Notes: generated from the sequence alone by a model not told the origin. A stretch of 64,000 bases of DNA from a virus (IMGVR_UViG_3300042544_003795:32001-96000); one strand, 5' to 3'; counted from the first letter of the stretch, positions 1,074 through 17,122 are shown. Made by a program: numbers and translations.

Positions 1074-1277
1074 TTAACTTGCTTGACGTTTCCTTAGTTC
1101 GTCAGCAAATGTCATGCCTTGGTCCCTGTAGTAGTTCTCATTATTGGGGGCTGGCAATGTCGCCATTGCTTCCGCCGCCAAGCGGCAATCCATTACAACC
1201 CAATTGAGGCTTTCAATTGAGAGAGTCTTGGCTTTAGCTTTCCAATAAATGAAGTCTAGTGACGTGGCTTGTTTCAT
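1074..1277 (-). CDS. Hypothetical protein, paralogue of 16818..17027
   Basis: ATSxDFI-W-KAKTLS...ENYYxDQGxTFADEL shared. Confidence 0.85.
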   Translation of the reverse strand: MKQATSLDFIYWKAKAKTLSIESLNWVVMDCRLAAEAMATLPAPNNENYYRDQGMTFADELRKRQAS

Positions 1278-1567
1278 GACACCTCATTATAACTCATTCG
1301 TTGTAACCTGCAAATGTTTTTTTCAATTACTTTAGTTTTTTTTACCATAGCAAATCTCATGCCAAGTAAAACATTTTTTCTGTCAAGCAAAAAAAATCCC
1401 TTACACGCTAGTAGAGGAATCCCCTAGGCGGCGCCCCCGGCTAGGGGATTTCCCTATGATAGCTTAAGGTATTTTTTAGTTGACACGCAAATGAGTAATG
1501 CGTGTTACACCATGCGCCATGTTACACCGTGCGACATGTTACACCATGCCGCACATGTTACACCATA

Positions 1568-1753
1568 CTAGGATATCCAATATAATGTGCCGTTTACTGT
1601 CATTGAGCCGTCCCACCACTCATATCCTAGATACCTATTGTTAACGCGAAGAGAGCAAAAGTCTTGGCCCCTACGGCCCACAATGCGGGTCACAGGAGAG
1701 GCACCCCACATGGTGGGGATGGAGTATTCGTTCCGGAAAAGGTTAGGTTTCAT
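1568..1753 (-). CDS. Small cassette protein (61 aa), paralogue of 2095..2286
   Basis: IPTMWG..VTR.V.RRGQD.C...EWWDG shared; start set from upstream TTGCGT-N17-TAGAGT. Confidence 0.8.
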   Translation of the reverse strand: MKPNLFRNEYSIPTMWGASPVTRIVGRRGQDFCSLRVNNRYLGYEWWDGSMTVNGTLYWIS

Positions 1754-2094
1754 AGAACCCCACTCTACAGCCGTTCCTTGAATCACGCAAGTGAATTTTT
1801 CTAATTGTTTTCATTTTTCTTGGCGTGCCAATGCATGTTACACCATGCACTATGTTACACCATACGCTATGTTACACCATGCACCATGTTACACCATACG
1901 CCATGTTTTTCGTCAAGTAAAAAAATTCCTTACGAGCTAGTAGAGGAATCCCCTAGCCGGGGCCGCCGCCTAGGGGATTCCCTTATGATTGCTTAGGGTA
2001 TTTTTTAGTTGACACGCAAATGCGCAATGCGTGTTACACCATGCCGCATGTTACACCATGCCGCATGTTACACCATGCGGCATGTTACACCTTG

Positions 2095-2286
2095 TTATCT
2101 GATGGTGTACATCTGTCCAAATATGGACATGGTGCCATCCCACCATTCCATGGCTATAAATATGCCACCAACATGAAGCTCGCAGTAATCTTGCCCCCGG
2201 CGGTTGACTACCCTAGTCACACGGGAAAGAGGACCCCACATGGTGGGGATAGGATGGAGTTGTGATCTGAATAGTCGTGGTATCAT
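2095..2286 (-). CDS. Small cassette protein, paralogue of 1568..1753
   Basis: Sequence similarity; own promoter. Confidence 0.8.
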   Translation of the reverse strand: MIPRLFRSQLHPIPTMWGPLSRVTRVVNRRGQDYCELHVGGIFIAMEWWDGTMSIFGQMYTIR

Positions 2287-2629
2287 AGGACTTCAATATA
2301 CCACATGCCTTGAGAGACGCAAGCGAATTTTTCTAATTGTTTTCATTTTTCTTGGCGTGCCTATGCATGTTACACCATGCACTATGTTACACCATACGCT
2401 ATGTTACACCATGCATCATGTTACACCATACGCCATGTTTTTCGTCAAGTAAAAAAATTCCTTACGAGCTAGTAGAGGAATCCCCTAGCCGGGGCCGCCG
2501 CCTAGGGGATTACCCTATAATCGCTTAGGGTATTTTTTAGTTGACACGCGAATGCGCAATAACTGTTACACCATGCGCTATGTTACACCGTGCGGCATGT
2601 TACACCATGCCGCATGTTACACCATGCTC

Positions 2630-2965
2630 TTAATAATCCATTTCGACTTCGAATAGTTCGAACATCCATGGGAGACGACTCGCGCCATCATCCCATACGC
2701 TATCGCAACGCATGTTGCGAAAAAACTCGTCAGTACTTTCGTACTTGTGTATTATACCATGATGTTCCGTTAGGAACCAGTGAATTTCCTCGTCTCCCCA
2801 GTATTCTCCCACTTCGTCATCCAAGAATGTATATACTTCATCCTGAGTGACAGGATCAGAGTCTTCCATTGCCATTTGAAGCGCTATAACTATCTGCGCT
2901 TCAATCGTCTTCTCAGACGATAGGTTGATCAAGCTGAGATAAGGATGGTTACTGTTGTTTATCAT
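2630..2965 (-). CDS. Acidic hypothetical cassette protein, related to 4158..4421
   Basis: QMAMEDSD/QMAYEDDD and KYxxTxEF(F/L) similarity; own promoter. Confidence 0.8.
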   Translation of the reverse strand: MINNSNHPYLSLINLSSEKTIEAQIVIALQMAMEDSDPVTQDEVYTFLDDEVGEYWGDEEIHWFLTEHHGIIHKYESTDEFFRNMRCDSVWDDGASRLPWMFELFEVEMDY

Positions 2966-3291
2966 CGGACCTCACTATACATCCGTTCCTTGAATCACGC
3001 AAGTGAATTTTTCTAATTGTTTTCATTTTTCTTGGCGTGCCAACGCATGTTACACCATGCACCATGTTACACCATGCACCATGTTACACCATGCGGCATG
3101 TTTTCTGTCAAGCAAAAAAATCCCTTACGCGCTAGTAGAGGAATCCCCTAGCCGAGCCCGCCGCCTAGGGGATTACCCTATAATCGCTTAGGGTATTTTT
3201 TAGTTGACACGCAAATGCGCAATGCGTGTTACACCATGCGCCATGTTACACCGTGCGACATGTTACACCATGCCGCACATGTTACACCACC

Positions 3292-3522
3292 CTAGGACAT
3301 CCTGTATATTCGACACTCAAAGTTTGACCCTATGGTGTCCCACACCATGTACATTTTCCCGCTTTCCATCAGACCGATAAATCGGCCTTCCGCCGTCCAC
3401 ATGTTCAGATTTACATCTCCCGGTCTTTTGACTCTGAAATGTGGCTGGTCAATTGACCAGCAGGAGACTGTGGACGACCATGTGCGAAAAGAAGGACGGT
3501 TGGCAGTAGTTGTGTTGCTCAT
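3292..3522 (-). CDS. Small cassette protein
   Basis: ORF fills the space between repeat blocks; same promoter as neighbours. Confidence 0.75.
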   Translation of the reverse strand: MSNTTTANRPSFRTWSSTVSCWSIDQPHFRVKRPGDVNLNMWTAEGRFIGLMESGKMYMVWDTIGSNFECRIYRMS

Positions 3523-3798
3523 AGGACTTCACTATACATCCGTTCCTTGAATCACGCAAGCGAATTTTTTTAATTGTTTTCTTTTTTCTTGGCGTGCCAA
3601 TGCATGTTACACCATGCACCATGTTACACCATACGCTATGTTACACCATGCACCATGTTACACCATACGCCATGTTTTTCGTCAAGTGAAAAAACACCTG
3701 ATGCGCTAGTAGAGGAATCCACTAGGCGACGGGCCCGGCTAGGGGATTCCCCTATGGCCTCTTAAGGGATTCCCCTAAGTTATAAAAACCAGCATCCC

Positions 3799-4131
3799 TA
3801 TAATCTCTATTAAGCGCTATAGCTCTTCGAAGTCGTAGAGTAGCTATAAGAGCCATAGCGGCTGAAAGCCGCATAATCGCTATTAAGCACTATAGCTCTT
3901 CGAAGTCGTAGAGTAGCTATAAGAGCCATAGCGGCTGAAAGCCGCATAATCGCTATTAAGCGCCATAGCTCTTCGAAGTCGTAGAGTAGCTATAAGAGCC
4001 ATAGCGGCTGAAAGCCGCATAATCGCTATTAAGCGCCATAGCTCTTCGAAGTTGTAGAATAACCATAAGAGCCGTAGCGGCTGAAAGCCGCATAATCGCT
4101 ATTAAGCGCTATAGCTCTTCGAAGTCGTAGA
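3799..4131. repeat. Tandem array 2: 73-bp unit x4 plus partial
   Basis: Same unit as 661-980 with variant GTCGTAGAGTAGCTATAAG. Confidence 0.97.
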
Positions 4132-4157
4132 AAATCTATAATGAATGTTACATCATC

Positions 4158-4421
4158 TTAAGAGTCGTAAAACTCTTTTAGAAATTTCTCCGGAGTTTCT
4201 TTGTATTTTTTATAAATCCTGCGGTCGTCTAAGACGCATAAAATTTCCTCGTGACAGATATATTCTCTTATATCCAATAGATAATAAAAGACCTCCCACA
4301 TTTGGACTTGATCATCGTCCTCATATGCCATTTGCACAACAATCTCCAAATCCGCAAAAGCTTCTTCGAGATTGTTCAAAGAACACTGCTGGAGGTAGGG
4401 GTTCTTATTGGTGTTCATCAT
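4158..4421 (-). CDS. Acidic hypothetical protein
   Basis: Start moved to ATG behind TTGCGT...TATGTT; related to 2630..2965. Confidence 0.75.
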   Translation of the reverse strand: MMNTNKNPYLQQCSLNNLEEAFADLEIVVQMAYEDDDQVQMWEVFYYLLDIREYICHEEILCVLDDRRIYKKYKETPEKFLKEFYDS

Positions 4422-4741
4422 CAGGTCACAACATACAGCCGACTCTCTAATCACGCAAGAGTTTTTTTCAATCGTTTTTGTTTTTTTTAGCGCAGTAATA
4501 CATGTTACACCATGCTACATGTTATATCATGGTACCCTAACCGTTAGTAAGGGATTCCCCTACGCGGCGTCCCCGTCTAGGGGATTCCTCTATGGAACGC
4601 TAAGGGAATTTTTTAGTTGACACGCAAATGCGCAATCCGTGTTACACCATGTCATATGTTACACCATGCGACGCGCCAAGATAAATGAAATAAATCGAAA
4701 ATATCCGTTGCGTCTTTCGCGGCCTGTGTTATAGTAAGGAC

Positions 4742-4948
4742 ATGAAAGAAACCCACTATCTCCTATCTGGCCTAAAACCCACAGGCGAGCACCTCGCCCT
4801 TTGGGCTTTAGAGTCCATAGTTAAGCTGTCCCGCCTCCACGGTCATCCCTTAGAAAGACCGGAAGCCACGGAGTGGCTGTCACAGTCTACAGAAAAGTCT
4901 CTTGACCGAGACTGGGTAGAATGGCGATTAGATGGCATCTTTGACTAA
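4742..4948 (+). CDS. Hypothetical cassette protein
   Basis: Directly behind conserved promoter. Confidence 0.75.
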   Translation: MKETHYLLSGLKPTGEHLALWALESIVKLSRLHGHPLERPEATEWLSQSTEKSLDRDWVEWRLDGIFD

Positions 4949-5031
4949 GGTGCTATCTCCCTCCCTTAAAAAGTTAAAAATAATCAAAAGGAACTCGACA
5001 CACCCCGAGTTCTATGGTAAACTCCTATACT

Positions 5032-5556
5032 ATGAAATCTCTACTCTTTATAGCCTTTATCTGTTTCACAGCTTTTGCTTATGGCATCTCTTCACCGAGT
5101 GTCAATGGTAAAAGGTTTGTCCCTGACTATTTTCAGATTGCGCTTGACGGCGTAAAGAGTTTTGAGGGTTTCAGAGAGAAGCCATATAAATGTCCGGCGG
5201 GAGTGCGGACTATAGGATACGGCTTTACTGGCCCTTTAGCTAAGGTTAAAAATATCAGTAAAGAAGACGCAGATCTTCTCTTGACTAAAGAGCTTCACCA
5301 ATATGTCTTGACTGTTGAAGATAATGTGAAAGTCCCCTTGACCCGCAATCAGCTTTATGCACTGGCCAGTTTCACATACAACTGCGGAGAAGGAAACCTT
5401 CGCCAGCTTGTCAACGGAAAAAATAGGCTAAACTCCGGAAACTATAAATCAGTTGAGAGGTTGTTACCTAAGTATCGTAAAGGCGGCGGGAAGGTTCTGA
5501 AAGGATTGCAAAAGAGGCGGGAGTGGGAAGTTAAGCTGTGGAAAGGTGAGCTTTAA
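5032..5556 (+). CDS. Phage lysozyme (GH24) with N-terminal signal peptide
   Basis: FEGFREKPYKCPAGVRTIGYG catalytic motif, ALASFTYNCG, GLQKRREWE; hydrophobic N-terminus ending AFAYG. Confidence 0.93.
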   Translation: MKSLLFIAFICFTAFAYGISSPSVNGKRFVPDYFQIALDGVKSFEGFREKPYKCPAGVRTIGYGFTGPLAKVKNISKEDADLLLTKELHQYVLTVEDNVKVPLTRNQLYALASFTYNCGEGNLRQLVNGKNRLNSGNYKSVERLLPKYRKGGGKVLKGLQKRREWEVKLWKGEL

Positions 5557-5764
5557 AAGTCAAGCGCCGCCTCCCCCTAAGGGGGAGTAGGGGATTCCCC
5601 TACGCGGCGTCCCCGGCTAGGGGATTCCCTTATGGTCGCTTAGGGGAATTTTTCGCTTGACCCATAAAAACGCAATAGTTGTTACACCATACGACGCGCA
5701 AAAATAAACGAAAACAATTGAAAATATCCGTTGCGTTCCTCACTGCATGTGATATAATGAAATC

Positions 5765-6037
5765 GTGAAACTTGACTCTCTTATCGCCCAGCTCGAAGCT
5801 CTCAAGGCCATGTACGGCCCAGACATAGAGGTCGCCTTCAAGGCGGCGTCAGAAACACAAAGTACGCCAATCACAAGCGCCGCCTTCAATTTCGAGGAGG
5901 CAACCAGAGATTGGATTATATCCCTAGCCTCGGAGGTCGAAGAGGATGAATGCGACTATTCCGGCGAATGGGACGAAGCAGAAAACGACTACGAGAGGAG
6001 AATGGAGGGATGGATGGACTCCAGAGGGGAGGAGTAG
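5765..6037 (+). CDS. Acidic hypothetical cassette protein
   Basis: GTG start 6 nt after TATAAT; D/E-rich C-terminus. Confidence 0.8.
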   Translation: MKLDSLIAQLEALKAMYGPDIEVAFKAASETQSTPITSAAFNFEEATRDWIISLASEVEEDECDYSGEWDEAENDYERRMEGWMDSRGEE

Positions 6038-6251
6038 TCAAGGGAAAAAATCTAAGAACCCCCCTAAGAGGGGGTAGGGGATTCCCCTACGCGGCGTCCC
6101 CGGCTAGGGGATTCCCCTATGGTACGATAAGGGAATTTTTTAGTTGACTCTCAAATGCGCAATACATGTTACACCATGCGGCGAGCCAAGATATATGAAA
6201 TAAATCGAAAATATCCGTTGCATTTTTTCCTCCCTGTGATATACTGATTAC

Positions 6252-6479
6252 ATGAGTTTACCACATCTTAAGTATATACATTTATCACGATTCGATAAAT
6301 TGGACTTCTTGATTAACAATTGCGGCGAAGGTTTTGTTAAAGAGTGCACTCTCTTGACCGAATTAGTCGGGTACATGTCTGACTCCGACTTTTCTGATTT
6401 CTTTGATAAAATCTGCCGTGAGTGGGGTATTGAGGTATCAGAAGAAATCTGCTGGGATTGGGAGACTGAAGGAGTCTAA
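6252..6479 (+). CDS. Small acidic protein, paralogue of 10355..10549
   Basis: KLDFLI.NC.E.FVKEC.LLTELVGYMSDSDFSDFFDK.CREW in both. Confidence 0.85.
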   Translation: MSLPHLKYIHLSRFDKLDFLINNCGEGFVKECTLLTELVGYMSDSDFSDFFDKICREWGIEVSEEICWDWETEGV

Positions 6480-6699
6480 GGGGAGACGATTAGAAAGTCA
6501 AGAAAACAACTCCCCTAAGGGGGAGTAGGGGATTCCCCTACGCGGCGTCCCCGGCTAGGGGATTCCCCTATGGTACGATAAGGGAATTTTTAGTTGACTC
6601 ATAAATGCGCAATGCGTGTTACACCATCCCACGACAAAAAAAAGAAAAAGAATTGAAAATATCCGTTGCTTTCCTGAAACGCTGGACTATAGTCAAGAC

Positions 6700-7113
6700 A
6701 TGACTCTTCAATCACCACCCGCTATCATCAAAGTTCCTTCCAACGTCTTGGCCGATGCCATGATCAACCGCTACTTCATCGCTGGCTTCCTGAACTGTTC
6801 AGAAGAGCAAATCTCTGACTGGGATATCAACTGGGAGAAAGGACACCTTTCTGTCACCTTTATCCCTGAATCCGATTTTTGGGGAGACTCTCTCAGGGAG
6901 TACCTCAACATAGAGTTCCAGCTTTTCGGAGAGGACATAGAAGGAAACGTCTGGGAGTTTCCCAACTCAGACAGAGTTCTAGAGTGGTTCTCTCTAGAGA
7001 AGAAAGGCCCCATGGGATCATGGAACGCGGGAGTAGCGGCTCACAAAGACAGCATGGAATGGGTGTGCTGGATGATAGCAAATAGCAAGGACGGCCTACT
7101 GAAAGATATGTAA
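6700..7113 (+). CDS. Hypothetical cassette protein
   Basis: ATG 6 nt after TATAGT; the 6616 start in the track lies within repeat DNA. Confidence 0.8.
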   Translation: MTLQSPPAIIKVPSNVLADAMINRYFIAGFLNCSEEQISDWDINWEKGHLSVTFIPESDFWGDSLREYLNIEFQLFGEDIEGNVWEFPNSDRVLEWFSLEKKGPMGSWNAGVAAHKDSMEWVCWMIANSKDGLLKDM

Positions 7114-7337
7114 AGTTGTTACACCAAGCAAGTCAAATAAAAAACTCCCCTAAGGGGGAGTAGGGGATTCCCCTACGCGGCGTCCCCGGCTAGGGGATTC
7201 CCCTATGGTCGCTTAGGGGAATTTTTATGTTGACTCATGAAAAAATAATTCATGTTACACCATCGCCTCCAAAGAAAAAGAAAAACAATTCAAAATATCC
7301 GTTGACTCTCTCTTGGCTTGTGTTATAGTATGGGACT

Positions 7338-7541
7338 ATGAATACCCTATATGTTGTCGAGGCCGAGTCCGGAGTTCACCACGGGAATTGCGAGCTAGGA
7401 GTGGGCCTAAGCCGCGCCGCCGCCATATGTGATGCCTACGGCCCCGGAGGTAAGCTCCCCCGCCATGCGTGGGTCAATATCGTCTCCCGCGAAAAGGAGC
7501 CGAAAAGGTTCGAGCGCCTAAAGGCTCAAAATGGCCTTTAG
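7338..7541 (+). CDS. Hypothetical cassette protein
   Basis: Behind TTGACT-N16-TATAGT. Confidence 0.75.
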   Translation: MNTLYVVEAESGVHHGNCELGVGLSRAAAICDAYGPGGKLPRHAWVNIVSREKEPKRFERLKAQNGL

Positions 7542-7659
7542 TGTCAAGCGAAAAACACCCCTAGGACACCCTAGGGGATTTCCCTACGCGGGGACGCCGC
7601 CTAGGGGATTCCTCTATGATTGCTTAGGGGATTTGCCTAGGGTATAAAAACCATCATTC

Positions 7660-7915
7660 CTATAATCACTATTAAGGTAAATAGCTCTTCGAAGTTGTAT
7701 AATCACTATTAAAGGCTATAGCTCTTCGAAGTTGTAGAATATCCATAAGAGCCGTAGCGGCTGAAAGCCGCATATTCTCTATTACGCGCCATAGCTCTTC
7801 GAAGTTGTAGAATACCCATAAGAGCCGTAGCGGCTGAAAGCCGCATATTCTCTATTACGCGCCATAGCTCTTCGAAGTTGTATAATAACTATTAAGAGCT
7901 ATAACCCTTCAAACT
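7660..7915. repeat. Tandem array 3: ~37-bp monomers plus two 73-bp units
   Basis: Same core as arrays 1 and 2. Confidence 0.93.
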
Positions 7916-7917
7916 TT

Positions 7918-8244
7918 TCAAATCAATCCCTTCACAATTAACCATGAAGGAGAACCATAACTATCCGTTCCGTCAGGTTCAACCGTTTCACCTAGGATAG
8001 ACTTGCAATTGCCGTTACTGTCCCATCGTGATAGACTTGACACAGAAGGTTCCTTCTTCCCTAGCATTTTAATAGCCGTACCATTGGAGATTTTAAACTC
8101 TGACTCTGAACCGTACACTTTGACACGAGGACGATGACCGATAGCAGTCTCTTCCCATCTAATAGAGAATTTGTTCCCCGCTTTCAGGACACTGCCGTCT
8201 TTCATTTTGATTTCAGTTTTATTGATAAATGAGTGAGTTTTCAT
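7918..8244 (-). CDS. Hypothetical phage protein
   Basis: C-terminal VEPDG...SPSWL motif; own promoter. Confidence 0.8.
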   Translation of the reverse strand: MKTHSFINKTEIKMKDGSVLKAGNKFSIRWEETAIGHRPRVKVYGSESEFKISNGTAIKMLGKKEPSVSSLSRWDSNGNCKSILGETVEPDGTDSYGSPSWLIVKGLI

Positions 8245-8301
8245 GTATTCAGTTTACCACACGGTTTTCAGATAGCAAAAAGTATTTTCAATTATTTTGT
8301 T

Positions 8302-8601
8302 TTATTGATAAAAGAAATTTTTGGCCCTCATCACAAGAGAAAGATATTGTGAGATTCTGATATGATGAAAAAGTCCACGATCAGGAGATTTTAAATAACC
8401 TTTAATTCCACCGTACTTAGCTATTGACTTATCCGGGTTACGTGGTGGATACAACGGGTTACCCTTGCCTTCTATCTGACCCCAGATATCTACTGTATCG
8501 CCCCACACGGCGGCAGTCAGTCGGATAGTTCCACCCTGTAGTGATGGAACCGTTAGGGTGACGTGATATGGGTGAAGGCCGGGTTGCAATTCAGGTTTCA
8601 T
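8302..8601 (-). CDS. Hypothetical protein
   Basis: ORF coupled to 8604..8846. Confidence 0.7.
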   Translation of the reverse strand: MKPELQPGLHPYHVTLTVPSLQGGTIRLTAAVWGDTVDIWGQIEGKGNPLYPPRNPDKSIAKYGGIKGYLKSPDRGLFHHIRISQYLSLVMRAKNFFYQ

Positions 8602-8603
8602 TT

Positions 8604-8846
8604 TTAGTCGCTGAGAAGTTCATCTCTTTCCTCATTGTAAATAGACAAACATGAAGGCCTTTCAAAATCAATATCGCCTAACGATAAATCGCCTAAAGAG
8701 ACTTTTTTCCATTCTACGTTGTCAAGCGTATAATGAAAAACGTCCCACTTGACATAGCAATCTTTGACTTGATCCCAGCTATCGACTGGAATATCGACAT
8801 CTGTTGAAGAGCCAACCGAATAAGACGCATCAATTGTGATTTTCAT
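8604..8846 (-). CDS. Acidic hypothetical protein, paralogue of 9927..10175
   Basis: SY.V.SS..(V/I)D(I/L)P...KD...HY(T/S)L...W shared. Confidence 0.8.
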   Translation of the reverse strand: MKITIDASYSVGSSTDVDIPVDSWDQVKDCYVKWDVFHYTLDNVEWKKVSLGDLSLGDIDFERPSCLSIYNEERDELLSD

Positions 8847-8976
8847 TTTATAATAAGTTAAGAACTAGTGAAAGCTAAACATCGCTTTCATGTGATTAGT
8901 ATATCACAGCCATCGAAAAACTCAACGGATATTTTTAATTCTTTTGATTTATTTTAAGAGTGTACTATACTAAAGC

Positions 8977-9153
8977 ATGAGCCTAGACAAAGCAATCGAA
9001 CACAATAAGGAGAAAAGAGCACCGTTCCGGAAAAGTAAACGCTTTGATAGAACTTGCCGCAATCATGGAAAGTGTCCATACTGTGAAGGGAACAGAACTT
9101 TTCAATCAGAAAAAGAACTTCAGAGAATAGAAAGCTTTGGAGAAGAAGAATAG
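8977..9153 (+). CDS. 58-aa Cys/His protein (not in ORF track)
   Basis: MSLDKAIEHNKEKR...DRTCRNHGKCPYCEGNR; TTGATT-N16-TATACT-N5-ATG. Confidence 0.8.
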   Translation: MSLDKAIEHNKEKRAPFRKSKRFDRTCRNHGKCPYCEGNRTFQSEKELQRIESFGEEE

Positions 9154-9337
9154 AGAATGTCAAGCACCGCCTCCCCTTAAGTGGGAATAGGGGATTACCC
9201 TATGCCTACCCCCCCGCATAGGGGATTCCCTTATAGTGTCTTAGGGTTGACTTGGCACGCCGCCTGCTTGTGTAAAGAAAATTGAAAACAATCGAAAATA
9301 TCCGTTGCAATCTAATACCCCTGTGACATAATAAAGC

Positions 9338-9577
9338 ATGAAACTATCTAAACTGATTAAGGTTTTGCAAAATGCGAAAAAAGAACTAGGGGACGTTCCT
9401 GTTATGGTGATGGATGAAGAAATGGGGAGTTGGGAATATCTCTCTGAGGTTCTCAAACTTCATCCTTATACTGGACCTTACGGGTGTATGGATAGAACCA
9501 AACCCGCAGATTCGATTGGCCTTGTTAGAAATAAAGGTTTCTCATCTAAAGACCTGCTACTAGGACAGAGAGATTAA
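9338..9577 (+). CDS. Hypothetical protein
   Basis: Behind conserved promoter. Confidence 0.8.
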   Translation: MKLSKLIKVLQNAKKELGDVPVMVMDEEMGSWEYLSEVLKLHPYTGPYGCMDRTKPADSIGLVRNKGFSSKDLLLGQRD

Positions 9578-9630
9578 AAAGAATTGAAAATATCCGTTGC
9601 ATCTATCCTAAAGTGTGATATAGTAAAGTC

Positions 9631-9909
9631 GTGAAAGATGATCTTCTTTACATACCTCGCCTTGCTGAACTTTACGATTGGTTTCGTATTGAGGAACAGA
9701 ATGGTGAGATGATTGCTTGCGGTGGAATATTTCCAGCTTATGAGATAAAGGCTGGCCAGCGATGGCAAGGTTCTAGTGGTCACACTGTTCTAGTCGATGA
9801 AGTGGATTCCTATTCAGTTCATTACTCATGGGACGAACAGGGAGTAAAGAAAACCCATAAAAAATCCCACTTCGCTTTCCAGTGCCGGTATTGTCTTGTT
9901 TTATCCTAA
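9631..9909 (+). CDS. Hypothetical protein
   Basis: GTG start 6 nt after TATAGT. Confidence 0.8.
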   Translation: MKDDLLYIPRLAELYDWFRIEEQNGEMIACGGIFPAYEIKAGQRWQGSSGHTVLVDEVDSYSVHYSWDEQGVKKTHKKSHFAFQCRYCLVLS

Positions 9910-9926
9910 TCTAACCTAATAACAAA

Positions 9927-10175
9927 ATGAAAGTTGAAATTGTCACATCATACAGAGTATTCTCATCTGCCTTTATCGACCTCCCTATTGAAAATATAAA
10001 GGAAATTAAAGATTACTTTATAATCGACAATGTTTTGCATTACTCATTGAAAGATGAAAAATGGGAAAAAATCACCTTGCCAGAGGGTGAGGATGAATTC
10101 GAAAAATCTAGTGAAGTGAAATTCTATAGTGCTGAGTCTCACCAAACAGTAATGAAAATGTCTAAGTCTATCTAA
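9927..10175 (+). CDS. Hypothetical protein, paralogue of 8604..8846
   Basis: Sequence similarity. Confidence 0.8.
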   Translation: MKVEIVTSYRVFSSAFIDLPIENIKEIKDYFIIDNVLHYSLKDEKWEKITLPEGEDEFEKSSEVKFYSAESHQTVMKMSKSI

Positions 10176-10354
10176 GTCAAGCTCCTCCTCCCCCTAAGGG
10201 GGAGTAGGGGATTCCCCTACGCGGCGTCCCCGGCTAGGGGATTCCCCTATAGCGTCTTAGGGTTGACTTGGCACGCCGCCTGCTTATGCAAAGAAAATTG
10301 AAAACAATTGAAAATATCCGTTGCTCTTTTCCTTCCCTGTGATATACTAATTAC

Positions 10355-10549
10355 ATGAGAACACGATTCGAAAAACTAGACTTCCTGATTGAAAATTGCA
10401 ACGAGACTTTTGTTAAAGAGTGCGTACTCTTGACCGAGCTCGTAGGCTATATGTCGGATTCCGACTTCTCCGACTTTTTTGACAAAGTTTGTAGGGAGTG
10501 GGACATTCGCATAGGACTTTATTGGGACAGTACAGAAGAAACTGAATAA
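10355..10549 (+). CDS. Small acidic protein, paralogue of 6252..6479
   Basis: Near-identical core and promoter. Confidence 0.85.
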   Translation: MRTRFEKLDFLIENCNETFVKECVLLTELVGYMSDSDFSDFFDKVCREWDIRIGLYWDSTEETE

Positions 10550-10769
10550 AAGTCAAGCGCCGCCTCCCCGAAAGGGGAGTAGGGGATTCCCCTACGCGGC
10601 GTCCCCGGCTAGGGGATTCCCCTAGGATGCTTTAGTAGATTACCCTAGGGTAGCTTAGGGTTGACAAATTTTTAGGCAAAGTTGGCACGCCTTCTGCTAT
10701 GCAAAGAAAAATGCAATTAATCGAAAGTATTTGTTGATTGATTGCTTAATAGGGTTATTGTGTGGGACT

Positions 10770-11783
10770 ATGAATAAAGAAATTGCATCTTGCTTCTCCT
10801 CCGTCGTTGGCCAATCCCAGATTGTCGCCAATCGTATCCTGTCCCATAGCGCCTTCGCTGCGGGCAATAATTCGCCCTATAGCGTTTGTTACACCGGAGC
10901 TGCGGGCTTAGGTAAAACTCAATTGCTCCGCGCGGAGTTAGCGGCCCGCGCCATGGCAATCCAGATTCGATTTGGACGTGAAGCCAATGTTTTCATGCTC
11001 CGGTCACCTCAGGAAATCCGCCTTGCTGGCGAGGCATTCTTTGAGTTTATCGGCAATGTCTCGGACGGTGACGGCGTTGTTATCGACGAGCTTCATGAGA
11101 TTGAAATCTCGTCTACCGTTCAACTCCGGAAACTTAAGCTCATCTTGAAGGGCTTGCTTGACAACGGGCAAGGCAAAATCCGTTCCGTGAAGATTGACGA
11201 TGATACGGTCATCTCCCGGCCTAAAGAGGAAATCTTTTTCGCCGCTGGCACTAACTTCCCAGAGAAAATCAAGGACGGTTCCGCCATCATCTCCCGGTTT
11301 GGTGGAGAGACGCCGCTGGACCTTTATACAGAGGATGAATTGACCAAAATTCTTAAACTCATGAGTGAGTCCGCCGGGCTTCGTGTGAACGAGAATACGC
11401 TTCTCCTTCTCGCCAAGTGTGGCCGTGGAACTGCCCGCCCACTAGAATCAATCGTTAGCTACCTTAGCAAAGTAGCATCAATCTCAGAGAAGACGACTAT
11501 CAATCGCGCGGAGGCACTAGAGGCAATGCGGGCTTTGAGTTTGTTTCCCCTTGGCGTTTCAAAGCGGGAAATCTCAATCCTTATCCGCAGCAAGGGCCAA
11601 GGCTTAGCGGTCAGAATGTTGCCAGTGATTTTTGCCGTCGAGCCGAAATCAGTCAATCAAAGCGTTAGCTTTCTTTGTGCTTATGGCTTCCTCAGCCTAC
11701 GGGGCGGAGTTGTCAATCTGTCCCCTCGCGGCGCGGCCTACTTGGACCAGTTAAAGGCTGAAAAGTTCTCTTTAGAATCCTAG
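10770..11783 (+). CDS. Divergent RuvB-like AAA+ ATPase
   Basis: VVGQ, Walker A GAAGLGKT, Walker B IDELH, AGTN, SRFG arginine finger, RGTAR, C-terminal LSPRG (cf. RuvB RGTPR and TPRGR). Confidence 0.85.
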   Translation: MNKEIASCFSSVVGQSQIVANRILSHSAFAAGNNSPYSVCYTGAAGLGKTQLLRAELAARAMAIQIRFGREANVFMLRSPQEIRLAGEAFFEFIGNVSDGDGVVIDELHEIEISSTVQLRKLKLILKGLLDNGQGKIRSVKIDDDTVISRPKEEIFFAAGTNFPEKIKDGSAIISRFGGETPLDLYTEDELTKILKLMSESAGLRVNENTLLLLAKCGRGTARPLESIVSYLSKVASISEKTTINRAEALEAMRALSLFPLGVSKREISILIRSKGQGLAVRMLPVIFAVEPKSVNQSVSFLCAYGFLSLRGGVVNLSPRGAAYLDQLKAEKFSLES

Positions 11784-11822
11784 GCCTTTTATCCCTCCCT
11801 TCTTTCTTACCTTACTTACCTT

Positions 11823-12149
11823 ATGAATGTTTCAATCTCCTACTCGCCATCGTCTCTCTCAGATTTTCTCGCCGCTTTGGAAGCGGTAAAAGGCATGAAC
11901 GGGAAAAGCGTTTCCGTTTCGCCAGCTTCTCTGAACTGTCCTGTTTCAAAGTACGTAGAAAAAACTGGAGCTTCCCGTTACCGTCGCACTCCGGAAGGTT
12001 GCCAATCCGGGCTTTCTAATTTGGACGACCTGAAAAAGCGGGCTTTGCTAGGCGACGCCATAGCGGCAGAATGTCTAGGCGACGAAATCCCGGAAAGTGA
12101 TTCTGAGTTGTCAAGCGAAGATAATTCGCCGATTGAAGCGATTTTCTAA
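11823..12149 (+). CDS. Hypothetical protein downstream of RuvB-like gene
   Basis: ORF followed by a terminator. Confidence 0.7.
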   Translation: MNVSISYSPSSLSDFLAALEAVKGMNGKSVSVSPASLNCPVSKYVEKTGASRYRRTPEGCQSGLSNLDDLKKRALLGDAIAAECLGDEIPESDSELSSEDNSPIEAIF

Positions 12150-12159
12150 TTGACAGGAA

Positions 12160-12191
12160 AGGGCGGCTGATTTTCAGCCGCTCTTTTTTTT
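12160..12191 (+). terminator. Rho-independent terminator
   Basis: GGGCGGCTGA-TTT-TCAGCCGCTC then T-tract. Confidence 0.8.
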
Positions 12192-12365
12192 GCATTGTCA
12201 ACCCTTAATCTACCCTAGAGGAATCCATTAGAGCACCCTAGGGGAATCCCCTAGCCGGGGACGCCGCGTAGGGGAATCCCCTAGTAAGGCCTAAGGTTTA
12301 CATCTTAATGAAACATAATACACCTTATTCATCCCCCCCCCATAAGGGGGAGGTATTTTGATATG

Positions 12366-13064
12366 TTACACCTGCACCACGAAACCAGAGTTGTCTTTTC
12401 TGGCTTTGCCTTTATCGACAAGCCCAACCACCACGCCCCTAGTGTCGAGGAAACGAAGGTCATTCTTGTCACCGTTCACAACCGGCGTTCCATGCCAGCT
12501 CTCGGGCAGTGAGCGACGGAAAACAACCGCCACGTTTCCACCTCGTGAGCGGATGGCGTGAACGTGCCGCTCGTTTGACTCACTGCGGGAGAATGTCAAA
12601 CTGTAGTTGGCGGGCATTTTCCCGTCGAGAAAATCCATCATGCGTTTGTACCCCTTGGTGTAATCGTACCAAGTAACCTCAGGGAAAAGCTCGAACAAGT
12701 TTTTCCCGTCCTGAACGTCGAGCGATTCCCACGGGATATCGCTGGTAAGGTTAAGCCGGATGGCCAACCGCATCCCATTTTTCTTGGCTTTCTTAATAGC
12801 CGCTTGAATTTCCTTAATTAGTTGTTTAGAGAATAGGTCAAAATTCTCCTTCAAGAGTTTAGTCTTGGCGATTCTAGCCGCTTGAACCGTCGAGAATGCA
12901 CCATGGCCTGAGGTGTTTAAACAGGAGAAGGTGCAACCACGGCTCGCCCAAGTGCATACGTTATAACCCGACAGATTGGCGGGAGCCAAATGGATGCCGA
13001 GAGTCGTCCAGCCTTCCTTCGTGCCCTTCATGATTTTTGCGTTCGCCGTAGTGAGTAATTTCAT
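12366..13064 (-). CDS. Gp88-family phage protein
   Basis: LAPA...NVC..AS.GC...CLNTSG, RLNLTSDI, YDYTK, YSLTFS, GDKNDLRFLD. Confidence 0.8.
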   Translation of the reverse strand: MKLLTTANAKIMKGTKEGWTTLGIHLAPANLSGYNVCTWASRGCTFSCLNTSGHGAFSTVQAARIAKTKLLKENFDLFSKQLIKEIQAAIKKAKKNGMRLAIRLNLTSDIPWESLDVQDGKNLFELFPEVTWYDYTKGYKRMMDFLDGKMPANYSLTFSRSESNERHVHAIRSRGGNVAVVFRRSLPESWHGTPVVNGDKNDLRFLDTRGVVVGLVDKGKARKDNSGFVVQV

Positions 13065-13419
13065 CGTTCACTATAATAGCCCGCTTTCCACCGATTGCAA
13101 ATTTATTTTCGATTAATTCTACTTTTCTCACATAGCGGATAGCGTGCCAAGTCAACCCTTAATCAACCCTAGGGGAATCCATTAGAGCACCCTAGGGAAA
13201 TCCCCTAGCCGGGGCCGCCGCATAGGGGAATCCCCTAGTAGTCGTTAAGGTTAAAATTTACTTGACTTTTTAATATGCCTATCACCCCTAATAGGGTTTT
13301 ATAGTAAATATAAAGTATTGAAAAATGCAATGCTCTCTATGGATATTATAGTGGGCACTGAGATTGCGGAGACTATGGAGAGTATGGCAATAATAGTTAT
13401 AGCCGCCATAAATAGCGTG

Positions 13420-13835
13420 CCCGCCTTATTAAGCGCCAAACCTCTTCGAAGTTGCAGCGCCACCTCCGCCCGCCTTATTAAGCGCCAAACCTCTTCGAAG
13501 TTGCAGCGCCACCTCCGCCCGCCTTATTAAGCGCTAAACCTCTTCGAAGTTGCAGCGCCACCTCCGCCCGCCTTATTAAGCGCTAAACCTCTTCGAAGTT
13601 GCAGCGCCACCTCCGCCCGCCTTATTAAGCACCAAACCTCTTCGAAGTTGCAGCGCCACCTCCGCCCGCCTTATTAAGCGCTAAACCTCTTCGAAGTTGC
13701 AGCGCCACCTCCGCCCGCCTTATTAAGCACCAAACCTCTTCGAAGTTGCAGCGCCACCTCCGCCCGCCTTATTAAGCGCTAAACCTCTTCGAAGTTGCTA
13801 ACGCCCCTTATTAAGGACGTTAGCTCTTCGAACTT
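13420..13835. repeat. Tandem array 4: 49-bp unit x about 8
   Basis: CCCGCCTTATTAAGCGCCAAACCTCTTCGAAGTTGCAGCGCCACCTCCG. Confidence 0.97.
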
Positions 13836-13838
13836 ACC

Positions 13839-14138
13839 TCACATTCTTTCGTTACATTTGATACGGCTTACATATTTTGGGCCATCATTGTAATAGACCT
13901 GTAAGTCTTCTAATAGCTCCTGTAGAGTCTCATCAATTGATTCGTAGCTTTCTCGCTCAATAAATCCAGATATCAGAAAGCCGACATTACAATGACTCCC
14001 AAAAGCAATAAAACTTTTACTTTTATAAATTTCAAAATCATGCCATTCTCCTTCATTATCTTGAAACTCTATAATGCCAACATAACTGTCTTTTTCTTTT
14101 TGATAAGCTTCAAATATTTCAGTGATTTCGGTTTGCAT
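13839..14138 (-). CDS. Acidic hypothetical protein
   Basis: TTGACC-N17-TATACT promoter, CAACAACAA leader. Confidence 0.8.
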   Translation of the reverse strand: MQTEITEIFEAYQKEKDSYVGIIEFQDNEGEWHDFEIYKSKSFIAFGSHCNVGFLISGFIERESYESIDETLQELLEDLQVYYNDGPKYVSRIKCNERM

Positions 14139-14208
14139 AGTATGGTTGTTGTTGGGGTTGCCTTACAATGTCAGTATAGCACAGGAGAAGGGGAGGGTCA
14201 AGAAAATA

Positions 14209-14673
14209 TTAGTAATTGTTTTCGTTTACAATACCATCCTTGAAATCTTCGATATGTGAAACTACAGACCTGTCAATCATAGAAGTGATTTTGCTGATCT
14301 TTTCTTCTGTGACTACGTTGTCGAAAATAGTCCAAGAAACTAACATGAAGTTAAGTTTGCTAATAAAGGTAATATCGGCGACTTTTCTGCCGTTGTATTC
14401 TTCTAGGGTGGAGAAGAAATATCCTTCGTGTCTTTCTGTTTCGGTTGAGCGCCGGACTACTACATCGCCGAAGGTGCGACGATCCCAGTGAGTAGGCGAC
14501 TGGTTAAGCTTGCGATACTCTGATGCGAACAAAGCCGCATCCGAAAGATTGCTAAAAACAAAGTAGTTAAAAGTCTTTAGGACAGACTCGATACTGTTTA
14601 TAACCACAACGAAGCCGTCAACTTCGTCGCTGAAGAATGGTGGTCGAATAAAGATTTCGCCGGAGTGATTCAT
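14209..14673 (-). CDS. Hypothetical protein
   Basis: Own promoter TTGACC...TATATT. Confidence 0.75.
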   Translation of the reverse strand: MNHSGEIFIRPPFFSDEVDGFVVVINSIESVLKTFNYFVFSNLSDAALFASEYRKLNQSPTHWDRRTFGDVVVRRSTETERHEGYFFSTLEEYNGRKVADITFISKLNFMLVSWTIFDNVVTEEKISKITSMIDRSVVSHIEDFKDGIVNENNY

Positions 14674-14732
14674 AGTAAATCAATATACCACAGAACAAAA
14701 GGAGGGTCAAGAAAAAAACTAAACTATTTTAA

Positions 14733-15239
14733 TCAGGAAGCCAAAATATACTTCTCTCCATTCATCCTGACTTCTTTGATATTGGATAGTTTATAGTTTC
14801 TTACCTTTACTTGCTTCTTACCCGTTACCCCTGCTCGTTCCTGTTTGGCGCTGGGCTTGGACTTGGTAAGATATTTATCGACGACTTCTTTGGCGACCTC
14901 TTCGCCATCAGCGACGAACTGAATCTTGACCGGCTTAGGTGCATTGCGGAATACTGTGCGCAGCTGCATCTCGCCGTTATATTTAATTACTTTATTTACG
15001 ACTACATATTCGCCGTAGGGCAATGGATCTGATTCAAAAGATTCTGCTCCTTGTTTCAGGATGGCTTCTCTATATCTAGCCCCTGTGACGACTGTCTGGT
15101 GAACAATCTTTTTAATCTGTTTATAAGGATTGCCAGTCTTATTTGCCTTCGGCTCAGTTTCAGTGAGGATGCCTAGAATTGTTGCTCCACGCCGGGCCGA
15201 TAGCATTTCAACAAATTGTTTATGAGTGATTGTTTTCAT
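14733..15239 (-). CDS. Hypothetical early protein, paralogue of 81..584
   Basis: Full-length similarity. Confidence 0.85.
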   Translation of the reverse strand: MKTITHKQFVEMLSARRGATILGILTETEPKANKTGNPYKQIKKIVHQTVVTGARYREAILKQGAESFESDPLPYGEYVVVNKVIKYNGEMQLRTVFRNAPKPVKIQFVADGEEVAKEVVDKYLTKSKPSAKQERAGVTGKKQVKVRNYKLSNIKEVRMNGEKYILAS

Positions 15240-15357
15240 TTTATCTATTTGGTTAATAGGGTTAATAGGAAGTGAAAGGAGAGATATGAACTACCTAAAG
15301 CTGACAAGTACATTATAAGACCTGCCAGCTCGAATGCAAACAAATTTTTCATTTGAT

Positions 15358-15576
15358 TTATCTTTTCTTCGTCCAGACTTTTAACTGAGCCTCTACTAGA
15401 TCAGCGTCAGGGGGTGACTTACCTTTATTATCGACAATGGAATAAGTCACACGGGCGTTCACTCCTTCTTTCAGCATAAGTTTTTTAGCGTGCCAATTTT
15501 GAGCGGCGACTGCATCCGCCAAAGAACGATGTTGAGAAATTTTAGAATTATCAGTAATGTTGTGAAGAGTGTACAT
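15358..15576 (-). CDS. Hypothetical protein
   Basis: ORF in minus-strand run. Confidence 0.7.
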   Translation of the reverse strand: MYTLHNITDNSKISQHRSLADAVAAQNWHAKKLMLKEGVNARVTYSIVDNKGKSPPDADLVEAQLKVWTKKR

Positions 15577-15647
15577 ATTCTTGTTTATTTTTAAATTAGA
15601 TAATAGATTTAATTAGAGGGTGTGGGAGGACACCCCGTTTTTATTGT

Positions 15648-16649
15648 TTAGCTGATCAAGGCCAGCTCACTACCCCGGCGAACCATTCGCTCAAATTCTC
15701 CCGGAGAAGTCAAGGCCGAGAATGCCCGAGTTTTCATTTTGCTACCTGATCCAAATTCTGAACTGACGAACTGAGCTTGCATACCCCGACCCGAATTAGA
15801 GTGAGTATAGAAGTCTGTCAAGGCAGAAAAGAGATCCAGTCGATTTTCTCCAGAGTTTCCAGCTCCAGTCTTGAACAGATTAAACACCTCTTCGACATTG
15901 TTACGTGAGCGAGTAGAGAAGTCCTGAGCAGTTTCTGGGGCAATGAACCCCGTCAAGAATTGTTCGGCAATACTGTCATTGACAGACTTGTGACCCAGTT
16001 CAGCCAGTTCAGCGCAGAACAAAGCCCGATTGCTAATGAGATCCTCGATACCGCTGGAAACATTGACCAACGCAAGGCCGGAATTTTTGGTGTGCTTGAC
16101 GGCGAACTTGATGCCTTGAGTTTTATTGTTGAAAGCGTTTACGTTAAAGCTAAACGTATTAGCGCAAACTGTGCAAATAGAGCTGTCCAAGAACATCGCC
16201 TTACCCGAACCATCGTGAGTGGACAAAGCGTTGAGGTAGAAGTCGAACTGACGATTACCAACCATAAAGGTTTTACCTTCGTTCAATTCGATTGAGATAA
16301 AGACTTTAGTGCGGTCGCAAACGGAACCGATAGAAGCGACTTTGAACTTCACGTTGCAATCCTCCAGACCCGAAACCAGAGTGTCAAACAAGTCTTTATT
16401 TTGAATGATGCCGTAACTACCGCTGACAGCGTTACCGATAGGGAGACCATCATCAGAAGAAACGATTGCGTCTTGATGGAACTTGACTGAGGTGCCATCC
16501 AAAGAAGTATTCAGAAACAAAGGCCGCCGCTCTAGTTCCCAGTTAAGAGGAGACTTTTCAAAAGTGATTTCCTGCTGAACGTCCGTCAGACCATGCCAAG
16601 CCTGAAAGGTTCCCATCTGAGCGTCGCGGTTTTCGATTTGGTGAGCCAT
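15648..16649 (-). CDS. DUF932-family protein
   Basis: MAHQIE...AWHGL, Y.IIQN, THDGS, VCANTF, KHT motifs. Confidence 0.85.
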   Translation of the reverse strand: MAHQIENRDAQMGTFQAWHGLTDVQQEITFEKSPLNWELERRPLFLNTSLDGTSVKFHQDAIVSSDDGLPIGNAVSGSYGIIQNKDLFDTLVSGLEDCNVKFKVASIGSVCDRTKVFISIELNEGKTFMVGNRQFDFYLNALSTHDGSGKAMFLDSSICTVCANTFSFNVNAFNNKTQGIKFAVKHTKNSGLALVNVSSGIEDLISNRALFCAELAELGHKSVNDSIAEQFLTGFIAPETAQDFSTRSRNNVEEVFNLFKTGAGNSGENRLDLFSALTDFYTHSNSGRGMQAQFVSSEFGSGSKMKTRAFSALTSPGEFERMVRRGSELALIS

Positions 16650-16817
16650 AATAGTAATTGAGTTTGTTGTTGTTTGTTGCTGCATCGTGCAGCTGAGATC
16701 AGTATAAGCGATTAAAAATAATCCGCAAGTTTTTTTTTCGTTTTTTTTACTTTTTTATTTCCACTCTCTATTAGACTATTCTTAATCAGATAGAGAGCGT
16801 TAAGGGGATTAGCCCTT

Positions 16818-17027
16818 CTATTTGCCTTTATTGTTGCGGCGATTAAGCTCGTCCGCGAATGTCAACCCTTGATCGACATAATAGTTTTCCTTATTCGGTT
16901 GCGGGTGGGTTGCCATCGCCCTAGCGGCTTCTTGACAATCCTTGATTACATACCGCAGGGAGCATTCGCTCAGAGTCTTGGCTTTTTTAGTCCAGAAGAT
17001 GAAGTCTTGTGATGTTGCGTTGTTCAT
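16818..17027 (-). CDS. Hypothetical protein, paralogue of 1074..1277
   Basis: Sequence similarity. Confidence 0.85.
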   Translation of the reverse strand: MNNATSQDFIFWTKKAKTLSECSLRYVIKDCQEAARAMATHPQPNKENYYVDQGLTFADELNRRNNKGK

Positions 17028-17122
17028 GACCTCAGTATAAGCGATTAAAAATAATCTGCAAATTCTTTTTTCGTTTTTTTAATCTTTTTTTTATTCAGCT
17101 TAAAGGGAGGGTAAATAGCTAA

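Follow-up and report, generated by a model that had tools for sequence, protein, structure and literature searches.

The window analysed here is IMGVR_UViG_3300042544_003795:32001-96000, a stretch of 64,000 nucleotides (nt) of viral DNA. Its first part (1-13.3 kb) is the hyperplastic small-gene region, probably the early region, of an uncultured freshwater phage, and it carries an array of small genes separated by copies of an element built from two palindromes. Phage-type genes in the window encode lysozyme, a GP88-family protein, a DUF932 protein, methyltransferases and a glucosyltransferase assigned by PHROGs, and six tRNAs and a tmRNA are also encoded. Rfam searches at the gathering score returned only the tRNAs and the tmRNA from the window, and the array itself gave sub-threshold chance matches. 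The GC content drops stepwise from 45% in the array to 28% at 40-64 kb.

The palindrome TAGGGGAWTCCCCTA, sought in the 64-kb window with at most one mismatch, had 32 matches, all within 1412-13237, compared with 0 expected from 100 shuffles. These matches group as 16 elements (E1-E16) with an arm offset of 30-31 bp, in agreement with the roughly 16 double-palindrome copies counted in a first-pass annotation of this DNA. The first arm of E5 (3710) has two mismatches, and a third arm is present in E5 (3763) and E11 (7625). Copy statistics were taken from 75 non-redundant elements pooled from the window and related contigs. In this set 86 of 150 arms were perfect, and the information content was 1.8 bits per position in the arms, compared with 0.5-0.64 in 50 nt of flank. 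The bracketing of most copies by GTCAA and TTGAC was likewise recovered: 65 of the 75 copies had GTCAA no more than 50 nt away on the left, and the same number had TTGAC no more than 50 nt away on the right.

Read in gene sense, a typical unit runs from a stop codon through GTCAAG, a C-run/G-run mini-hairpin, the first arm, a 15-nt GC-rich spacer and the second arm to CTTAGGGGA with a T-run, TTGAC and at least one 17-bp box (CATGTTACACCATGC..). An A/T-rich stretch then leads to GAAAATATCCGTTGC, which is followed after 16-18 nt by a TG-extended -10 box (TATAAT, TATAGT or TATACT) and, 5-8 nt further on, by a start codon. For example, the putative promoter at 4684-4741 (plus strand) consists of GAAAATATCCGTTGC, the 16-18-nt gap and a TG-extended TATAGT with the start codon 6 nt on, and similar sequences begin at 5721, 6208, 6656, 7292, 9295, 9587 and 10311 on the plus strand and at 8922 on the minus strand. 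A promoter variant serves the minus-strand genes g3-g5. Altogether, about 16 of the 23 cassette genes, which lie on both strands, have a promoter-like sequence of their own. No Shine-Dalgarno sequence accompanied these starts at 4684-10354 and 22894-26090. Because the gap between -10 box and start codon is only 5-8 nt, the mRNAs of most small genes are predicted to be leaderless.

A second small-gene block at 22344-26296 (minus strand) has the same promoters and no palindrome elements, and therefore promoter and palindrome element are separable modules. In relatives, homologues of these genes are found as cassettes within the arrays. Other genes at 22.9-25.1 kb are set apart by another short intergenic signal, ..AACTCTAATATAATAATA.., which immediately precedes ATG.

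The array contains 23 cassette open reading frames (ORFs; g1-g23, 1074-13064), of which only g8, g21 and g23 matched families. g8 (5014-5556) encodes a phage lysozyme (Pfam Phage_lysozyme, 1.3e-34), starts with a hydrophobic signal-like segment and occupies the array as a cassette gene; g21 (10770-11783) encodes a RuvB-like AAA+ protein, and g23 (12366-13064, minus strand) belongs to the GP88 family. For the remaining cassette ORFs no informative family was found in Pfam or PHROGs (20 cassette ORFs scanned), and nearly all are ORFans. Differences between orthologues fall mostly at third codon positions, which marks the cassette ORFs as real genes under purifying selection. Specifically, between the window and the related contig L010 all 22 of 22 nucleotide differences in g22 were at third positions with 0 amino acid changes, and the corresponding figures were 45 of 65 for g8 and 37 of 51 for g11. 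The non-coding share of the array is 40%, and its genes vary in GC content between 33 and 58%, which suggests mixed origins. One small ORF per interval had been proposed; this applies to 10 of the 15 intervals between elements, but the other five contain 2-4 ORFs. Near-identical cassette flanks were found at 1776-2075 and 2308-2607 (94% identity over 300 nt). Among the recurring paralogues that had been listed, 1568/2095 and 6252/10355 clustered directly, whereas 2630/4158 were connected only indirectly, through locus matches at 33-37% amino acid identity.

The centre base of each arm (ATT or AAT) marks orientation. In E1-E5 the arms read AAT and then ATT. E1 (1382-1484, arms at 1412 and 1442), E2 (1912-2013, 1941 and 1971), E3 (2444-2545, 2473 and 2503) and E4 (3107-3208, 3136 and 3166) are symmetric, head-to-head copies, each made of two right halves in mirror image and bordered by an A-run at one end and a T-run at the other. 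E5 (3681-3777, arms at 3710, 3740 and 3763) deviates from them on its right side, where it has the third arm and no T-run, and it adjoins a 73-bp tandem array. In E6-E14, all in plus orientation, both arms read ATT. E6 (4535-4621, 4548 and 4578) lies between the divergent genes g6 and g7 and lacks GTCAAG on its left, E7 (5559-5661, 5588 and 5618) lies 3' of the lysozyme gene, and E8 (6037-6148, 6075 and 6105), E9 (6497-6598, 6526 and 6556) and E10 (7132-7234, 7161 and 7191) follow. E11 (7543-7639, arms at 7572, 7602 and 7625) adjoins another 73-bp array. E12 (9159-9251, 9188 and 9219) has a 16-nt spacer of the type found in L005 and L007, E13 (10176-10267, 10205 and 10235) lacks a T-run and is followed by TTGAC and a sigma-54-like motif, and E14 (10552-10665, 10580 and 10610) lies upstream of the RuvB-like gene. 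E15 (12197-12300, minus strand, arm centres GAATC) and E16 (13151-13266, minus strand) are turned round in their entirety, as is the minus-strand gene g23, the former 3' of this gene and the latter upstream of its promoter. The proposal that spacer orientation follows gene direction thus stands in that the spacer turns along with the whole core, but it fails at E11, where the spacer is flipped relative to its flanks, and probably at E1 and E5.

Twelve related contigs were available for comparison: L001-L011 came from a pattern scan of metagenome contigs, and L032, with 19 elements, came from IMG/VR. The exact paired-palindrome pattern had no match in IMG/VR, and the single-arm pattern then retrieved L032. 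A blastn search of GenBank phages with 4400-7700 gave no match, and the single-arm pattern gave only isolated, chance-like matches in 596 Gb of prokaryote genomes and no host or prophage lead.

Shared genes were 75-100% identical at the protein level in these relatives, while gene order differed strongly, and distinct gene strings were found in the window, L001/L008/L010, L005/L007, L002, L003/L011 and L032. Between g9 and g12, the window has g9, g10, g11 and g12; L008 has g9', g11, a homologue of window gene 25290 with another gene, an unknown gene and g12; L001 has g9', 25290', 25058'+22649', 23844'+24212' and g12; and L002 has g17, g11, a g10/g20-like gene and g12. In addition, the RuvB-like gene and its partner are inverted in L007, g7 lies between g4 and g5 in L011, and g16 is present in two copies in L032. 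To the right of the array, 10531-19498 of the window is collinear with L010 at about 90% identity. A mosaic array beside a collinear right side indicates that the array is hyperplastic and its neighbourhood is not. The first-pass annotation had proposed a gene-shuffling platform, to be abandoned if relatives kept the same gene order or if breakpoints fell outside the element. The idea survived this comparison: gene order was not shared, and the rearrangement boundaries lay within the repeated scaffold, often in the double-palindrome core.

Exchange boundaries were mapped by comparing window elements with those elements of relatives for which just one neighbouring gene, upstream or downstream, is shared. 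The left flank, from the stop codon to the first arm, was 83-100% identical where the upstream gene was shared (95-100% for the tails of g9, g10 and g11) and 51-85% identical where the downstream gene alone was shared (at most 76% in 16 of 17 comparisons). With only the downstream gene shared, the 50 nt before the start codon were 88-100% identical for g9, g10, g11, g21 and two of three g7 comparisons, and 62-69% for g12. In upstream-only comparisons the right flank was 42-59% identical in three cases, which places the switch inside the core, and 81-93% in four, which places it further right. The left flank thus goes with the upstream gene and the promoter with the downstream gene; the switch usually falls in the 45-51-bp core, but some switches lie in the promoter part. 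Behind the lysozyme gene, the window has no extra promoter-gene unit, L008 and L032 have one and L001 has two, and these units are inserted exactly between the A-rich stop-codon tail and GTCAAG. Crossovers thus concentrate in the scaffold and not at one site, which fits what homologous recombination between repeats predicts and agrees with the published findings on the stem-loop cassettes of T4-type phages.

Boundaries that often fall in the core would also be expected if the element were an attC-like site for a dedicated site- or structure-specific recombinase, making the array a true phage analogue of an integron. However, boundaries also occur in the promoter part and at the stop-codon edge, and the cassettes bring promoters of their own and are found in either orientation.

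The core itself changes within genomes. In the window the spacer is 15 nt long (cgcggcgtccccggc) in 15 copies and of the 16-nt type in E12. L005 has a 16-nt spacer; L007 is mixed, its spacers being of 16 nt where the copies are common to L005, of 21 nt in three others and of 15 nt in a single copy; and all 18 non-redundant copies of L032 have 20-22 nt. Meanwhile, orthologous sites of different lineages had flanks with 85% identity (g8/g9 site) or 95-98% identity (g9 and g11 sites). Different spacers between such similar flanks mean that the spacer was rewritten in concert within genomes. Two L003 elements, at 781 and 1328, have the same left flank and first arm and nearly the same right flank but differ in spacer and second arm, a pattern that we read as a conversion patch.

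Fused elements were found at L007 993 and L005 464, where three arms alternate with a 15-nt and a 16-nt spacer. Such a layout is what would remain if neighbouring elements recombined arm to arm. It also resembles an excision scar, as an attC-like site might leave, and the spacer can flip alone, as in E11 of the window (kept in L001, L002 and L008) and at L032 5001. Loop flips are typical between inverted repeats, however, and need no enzyme.

A direct search for a recombinase was negative: no integrase, resolvase or transposase was found with Pfam and PHROGs in 10 larger window ORFs, 20 cassette ORFs and 10 ORFs of relatives, the latter including those beside the relatives' arrays. The left neighbour of the array in L008, L011 and L006 is a GT2 glycosyltransferase gene. 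Within the array, only the RuvB-like gene is related to recombination. A branch-migration ATPase of this kind, with its conserved small partner inside the array, would suit an attC-like system, and palindromes are able to extrude as four-way junctions, but the RuvB-like gene is also present in the array-less relatives L190 and L196. With scattered crossovers, cassette promoters in both orientations and no recombinase in the scanned ORFs, the recombinase-site or integron reading put forward in the first-pass annotation did not hold up, and we regard a dedicated recombinase as very unlikely.

E12 bears on another alternative, in which the element is a selfish miniature mobile element resembling a repetitive extragenic palindromic (REP) doublet (REPIN) or a miniature inverted-repeat transposable element (MITE), spread by an HUH/Y1 transposase or similar enzyme. 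E12 and its right flank (about 120 bp) are present in the window only; g16 adjoins the g17 promoter in L010 and L001, and in L008, where both E12 and g17 are absent, it adjoins the g18 promoter. Additionally, the mirrored halves of E1-E4 around the spacer with GTCAA...TTGAC ends, and the uniformity of spacer subfamilies per genome, as after a burst, would suit such an element, and two inverted REPs with a spacer are the definition of a REPIN (PMC3337134, PMC3116915). A MITE-type target-site duplication at E12 was considered and rejected, since the junction has only a 3-nt repeat. Moreover, the copies are restricted to one 13-16-kb region, they occupy a constant place within the unit, and their flanks co-vary with the neighbouring genes. 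No match to a Y1 transposase below E 2.8 was found by tblastn against the 64-kb window. The relative L192 has IS605-type tnpA (Y1_Tnp) and tnpB (OrfB_IS605) genes at 84-1567, at the contig end and about 7 kb from its palindrome site; we read them as an unrelated insertion. Spread as a selfish element is, in our view, highly improbable.

In predicted RNA folds, the elements formed one long hairpin of -32.9 to -62 kcal/mol (ten folds); 8 of the 10 had z-scores from -2.45 to -7.5, and the folds of E8 and E12 were indistinguishable from shuffles. The arms pair together, and the CCCTAAG/CTTAGGG flanks lengthen the stem. The strongest examples were E7, at -61.2 kcal/mol and followed by a U-run, and E10, at -62 kcal/mol with a z-score of -7.5. 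The symmetric copies folded equally well on both strands: E1-E4, including E2 with its A-run and T-run, gave -42.6/-48.6 kcal/mol (z -5.1/-5.9) on either strand, which confirms the earlier description of the left-hand copies as one long hairpin. A T-run of at least four within 32 nt of the right arm was present in 48 of the 75 copies, and these copies look like strong intrinsic terminators, bidirectional in the case of E1-E4.

The main action of the hairpins might instead be on RNA, where they would be processed by RNase III or would stabilise the 3' ends of single-gene messages, in the way that intergenic hairpins of the T7 early region work. Predicted stems of at least 30 bp directly after stop codons would suit this role. 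One-sided changes of G-C pairs read on the sense strand gave G-U in 14 cells and A-C in 6, a weak bias because the sequences are related. The stem shows no covariation, however, the arm sequence is conserved beyond mere pairing, and E6 lies between divergent promoters. We consider a mainly RNA-level function unlikely.

The conservation of the arm beyond the arrays was followed through the RuvB-like protein. g21 encodes a divergent homologue of RuvB (E 1e-10 against the Thermus protein) that has both Walker motifs, A and B, and a sensor motif of the RGT type, and its family extends down to 34% identity. The possibility that it is a bacterial enhancer-binding protein was rejected on its RuvB-type motifs and the lack of a GAFTGA loop. 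The partner gene g22 (108 amino acids, with an acidic tail ending in an aromatic residue) always follows the RuvB-like gene (window 10770-12149). All relatives, down to those at 34% identity, retain both genes, as a rule close to DUF932 and GP88 genes. The tail of g22 recalls the tails of single-stranded-DNA-binding proteins (SSBs), and its AlphaFold model had a mean pLDDT of 63.6, too low for a fold search. IMG/VR loci sought with the RuvB-like and GP88 proteins yielded none that was confirmed.

In L188 (RuvB-like protein 50% identical) there are 19 TAGGG-N5-CCCTA sites and 27 copies of a second palindrome, GTTCTGCAGAAC. L194 (58%) has 13 such sites, some as 30-bp pairs, and L193 (59%) has two elements around DUF932 with one spacer type and opposite orientations. 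L192, L195 and L187 (56-65%) have one near-perfect site each (the right arm is CCCGTA in L187) and enriched half-sites, and L190 (38%) and L196 (34%) have no full site. A site lies about 90-160 nt upstream of the RuvB-like start in the window, L192, L193, L194 and L187, and in L192 and L187 this single site is 26-35 nt upstream of the TTGACA -35 box of the RuvB-like gene. Since the arm letters are kept at 50-65% protein identity, where a purely structural hairpin would drift, the half-site TAGGG-N5-CCCTA is probably a recognition site of a dimeric protein of the phage family. The earlier idea of a dimeric-protein site thus receives some support from the conservation of half-sites in distant relatives. 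Judged from sequence, the arm is older than the arrays and was probably first a control site of the RuvB-like operon.

These data also fit a reading in which the palindrome pair is primarily a regulatory protein site, such as an operator, a "stoperator"-like roadblock or an activator site, and shuffling is a by-product of its repetition. Besides the persistence of the half-site and the single sites before the RuvB-like gene, the half-site centres are 10 bp apart, or one helical turn, which is the usual geometry of helix-turn-helix dimers, and the stem shows 0 compensatory changes. Stoperators provide a precedent, with about 30 repressor sites across phage intergenic DNA (PMC9283540, PMC6550527). 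No candidate binding protein was identified, however. The arm centre spacing of 30, 31, 36 or about 80 bp (the last in L188), depending on the lineage, does not keep helical phasing and counts against strict cooperative binding, and the downstream sigma-70-type promoter lies at variable distances (79, 103-108 and 123 bp). A primarily regulatory role is a possibility that we hold only tentatively, and it is compatible with cassette shuffling rather than exclusive of it.

A more speculative variant would make the palindrome pair a site at which a phage-family protein is loaded or which it recognises; the RuvB-like AAA+ protein, together with its acidic-tailed partner, is one example. Acting on an extruded cruciform, this protein would drive cassette exchange and spacer homogenisation as an integrase-free, structure-specific system, and the motif, first an operon control site, would later have been amplified. 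We consider this quite unlikely.

In our judgement it is fairly probable that the units are cassettes of a promoter, a leaderless gene and a hairpin that correspond to the promoter-early stem-loops (PeSLs) of T4-type phages and are shuffled by homologous recombination or short-patch conversion. PeSLs are composites of a sigma-70 promoter and a stem-loop terminator that mediate ORFan shuffling by homologous recombination (PMC2839356, PMC4122927). In the phage studied here, most small genes would be autonomous transcription units, each with a host-type promoter (A/T-rich upstream stretch, TTGC-type -35 and TG-extended -10), an ORF and an element. The double-palindrome element would serve as punctuation between units, made into an intrinsic terminator by the T-run in about two thirds of the copies; the symmetric left-hand copies would terminate in both directions, and outward-facing TTGAC boxes would mark both element ends. 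The same 150-300 bp of regulatory DNA, recurring between unrelated genes, would supply portable homology. General recombination, slippage or template switching between copies could then delete, duplicate, invert, swap or import promoter-gene units, with many exchanges inside the 45-51-bp core, which short-patch conversion would homogenise within each genome. This is the PeSL principle and would require no dedicated recombinase, and a dimeric phage-family protein would probably recognise the arm half-site on top of the shuffling role.

Several observations weigh against this account. The T-run is absent from 27 of the 75 copies and E6, between divergent genes, has nothing to terminate; therefore, termination is not the sole role of the core. 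For the arm-to-arm stem, RNAalifold gave 17 consensus pairs, all invariant or changed on one side, with none compensatory; the hairpin thus lacks covariation support, and the sequence itself is what is conserved. The identity between arms extends over only 15 bp, which is short for RecA-type exchange and leaves room for an active structure- or site-specific process at the core, and the recombinase searches covered 64 kb of a larger genome.

Other repeats accompany the elements. Tandem 17-bp boxes (CATGTTACACCATGC..) flank E1-E6 at 1503-4535 on the plus strand, and single copies follow E6-E10. In total, 41 copies lie within 1502-7252, always on the plus strand regardless of gene direction, and runs of boxes occur for example at 1503-1566, 1834-1907 and 2032-2091 within a whole range of 1503-7263. 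The first box begins 17 nt after TTGACN in the five elements read (E2 and E7-E10), suggesting that the boxes are either promoters of a second, non-standard class or polar binding sites. In L188 the place of these boxes is taken by the 27 copies of GTTCTGCAGAAC, often as a tandem pair between two arms. The exact sigma-54 consensus TGGCACG-N4-YTGCW has three matches (9253-9268, 10269-10284 and 10683-10698; 0 expected), directly after the TTGAC of E12, E13 and E14 and upstream of the sigma-70-type promoter.

The 73-bp tandem arrays lie at 661-997, 3800-4131 and 7661-7899, and a related 49-bp array lies at 13419-13798. Each unit of these arrays holds an GCGGCTGAAAGCCGC hairpin and an CTTCGAAG palindrome. 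The arrays split the cassette region into sections and always stand at the 3' end of a minus-strand gene. Three of them directly adjoin elements, namely E5, E11 and E16, the first two of which are of the three-arm type. They occupy syntenic positions in L001, L002, L003/L011, L005/L007, L008 and L010, and an origin, barrier or packaging signal is possible.

Among known systems, the REPIN or bacterial interspersed mosaic element (BIME) (Bertels and Rainey 2011; PMC3116915, PMC3337134) shares with E1-E4 the arrangement of two inverted palindromic units and a short spacer in one hairpin, and it also lies in intergenic DNA just after genes and forms sequence populations that are uniform per genome. 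Unlike REPINs, the elements described here are phage-borne and form one cluster (all copies at 1412-13237 of 64 kb) instead of being dispersed over a genome; each arm is itself a perfect palindrome, the copies are tied to promoter-gene units, and neither a RAYT nor another Y1 transposase was found by tblastn in the window. The stoperators of cluster A mycobacteriophages likewise comprise dozens of copies of one short protein-recognition sequence in phage intergenic DNA, recognition being putative here, and the window and its relatives carry families named after phage L5 (GP88 and L5_gp82). Stoperators, however, are asymmetric single sites of 13 bp, scattered genome-wide and bound by an immunity repressor that is monomeric (PMC9283540, PMC6550527), whereas the sites here are symmetric, paired and confined to one region, and no repressor is known for them.

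Integron attC arrays resemble the present array as a row of mostly single-gene units parted by an imperfect-palindrome element, with unit boundaries often inside the element and cassette content that varies among relatives. In contrast to integrons, no intI-type recombinase was found in the scanned ORFs of the 64 kb visible here, and the element has neither the R''-L''/L'-R' architecture of attC nor the GTTRRRY core. The cassettes carry promoters of their own (about 16 of 23 genes) in both orientations rather than depending on a common Pc arrangement, and boundaries fall in the core, the promoter part and the stop-codon edge instead of at a fixed attC point.

The system is thus an elaborate variant of T4-type PeSL cassette shuffling and not an integron. 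The first-pass annotation had stated that the element matched neither known analogue, which does not stand for PeSLs, because a composite of a hairpin and a sigma-70-type promoter is how PeSLs are defined (PMC2839356, PMC4122927). As in the T4-type pairs RB49/phi1, PST/T4 and nt-1/KVP40 (Arbiol et al. 2010, PMC2839356; Comeau et al. 2014, PMC4122927), a GC-rich stem-loop, an A/T-rich region and a sigma-70-like promoter sequence are combined, the motifs flank ORFans in a hyperplastic region beside collinear genome parts, the end points of indels, replacements and reorderings between close relatives fall in the motif, and no dedicated recombinase was found, here in the ORFs scanned. PeSL mini-circle crossovers were located in the loop in one phage and between the motif's stem-loop and its A/T-rich region in another (PMC2839356).

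PeSL-type mobile regulatory cassette shuffling is thereby extended to an unrelated, uncultured freshwater phage lineage, with no T4-type marker in this 64-kb window. The comparative evidence is unusually clear, with the same genes in different orders in at least five relatives and exchange points placed in a 45-51-bp core. The cassettes also offer some 40 ORFan families that could be examined for roles in host takeover or counter-defence. Two features lie outside the described PeSL picture: the spacer is rewritten in concert over about 15-20 copies per genome between flanks that are 85-98% identical between lineages, and the 15-bp palindrome is kept where only half of the protein residues are common to the relatives. 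Were a protein to bind this palindrome, a single factor would contact all small genes of the region, and the arrays would show an amplified regulatory site turning into a recombination substrate. Compared with the PeSLs of T4-type phages, the stem-loop is much larger, with two identical 15-bp palindromes, a lineage-specific GC spacer that evolves in concert within the genome and inverted TTGAC ends; the palindrome is retained among relatives at a protein identity of 50-65%, transcripts from the promoters appear to be leaderless, and the scaffold includes polar 17-bp boxes and 73-bp arrays.

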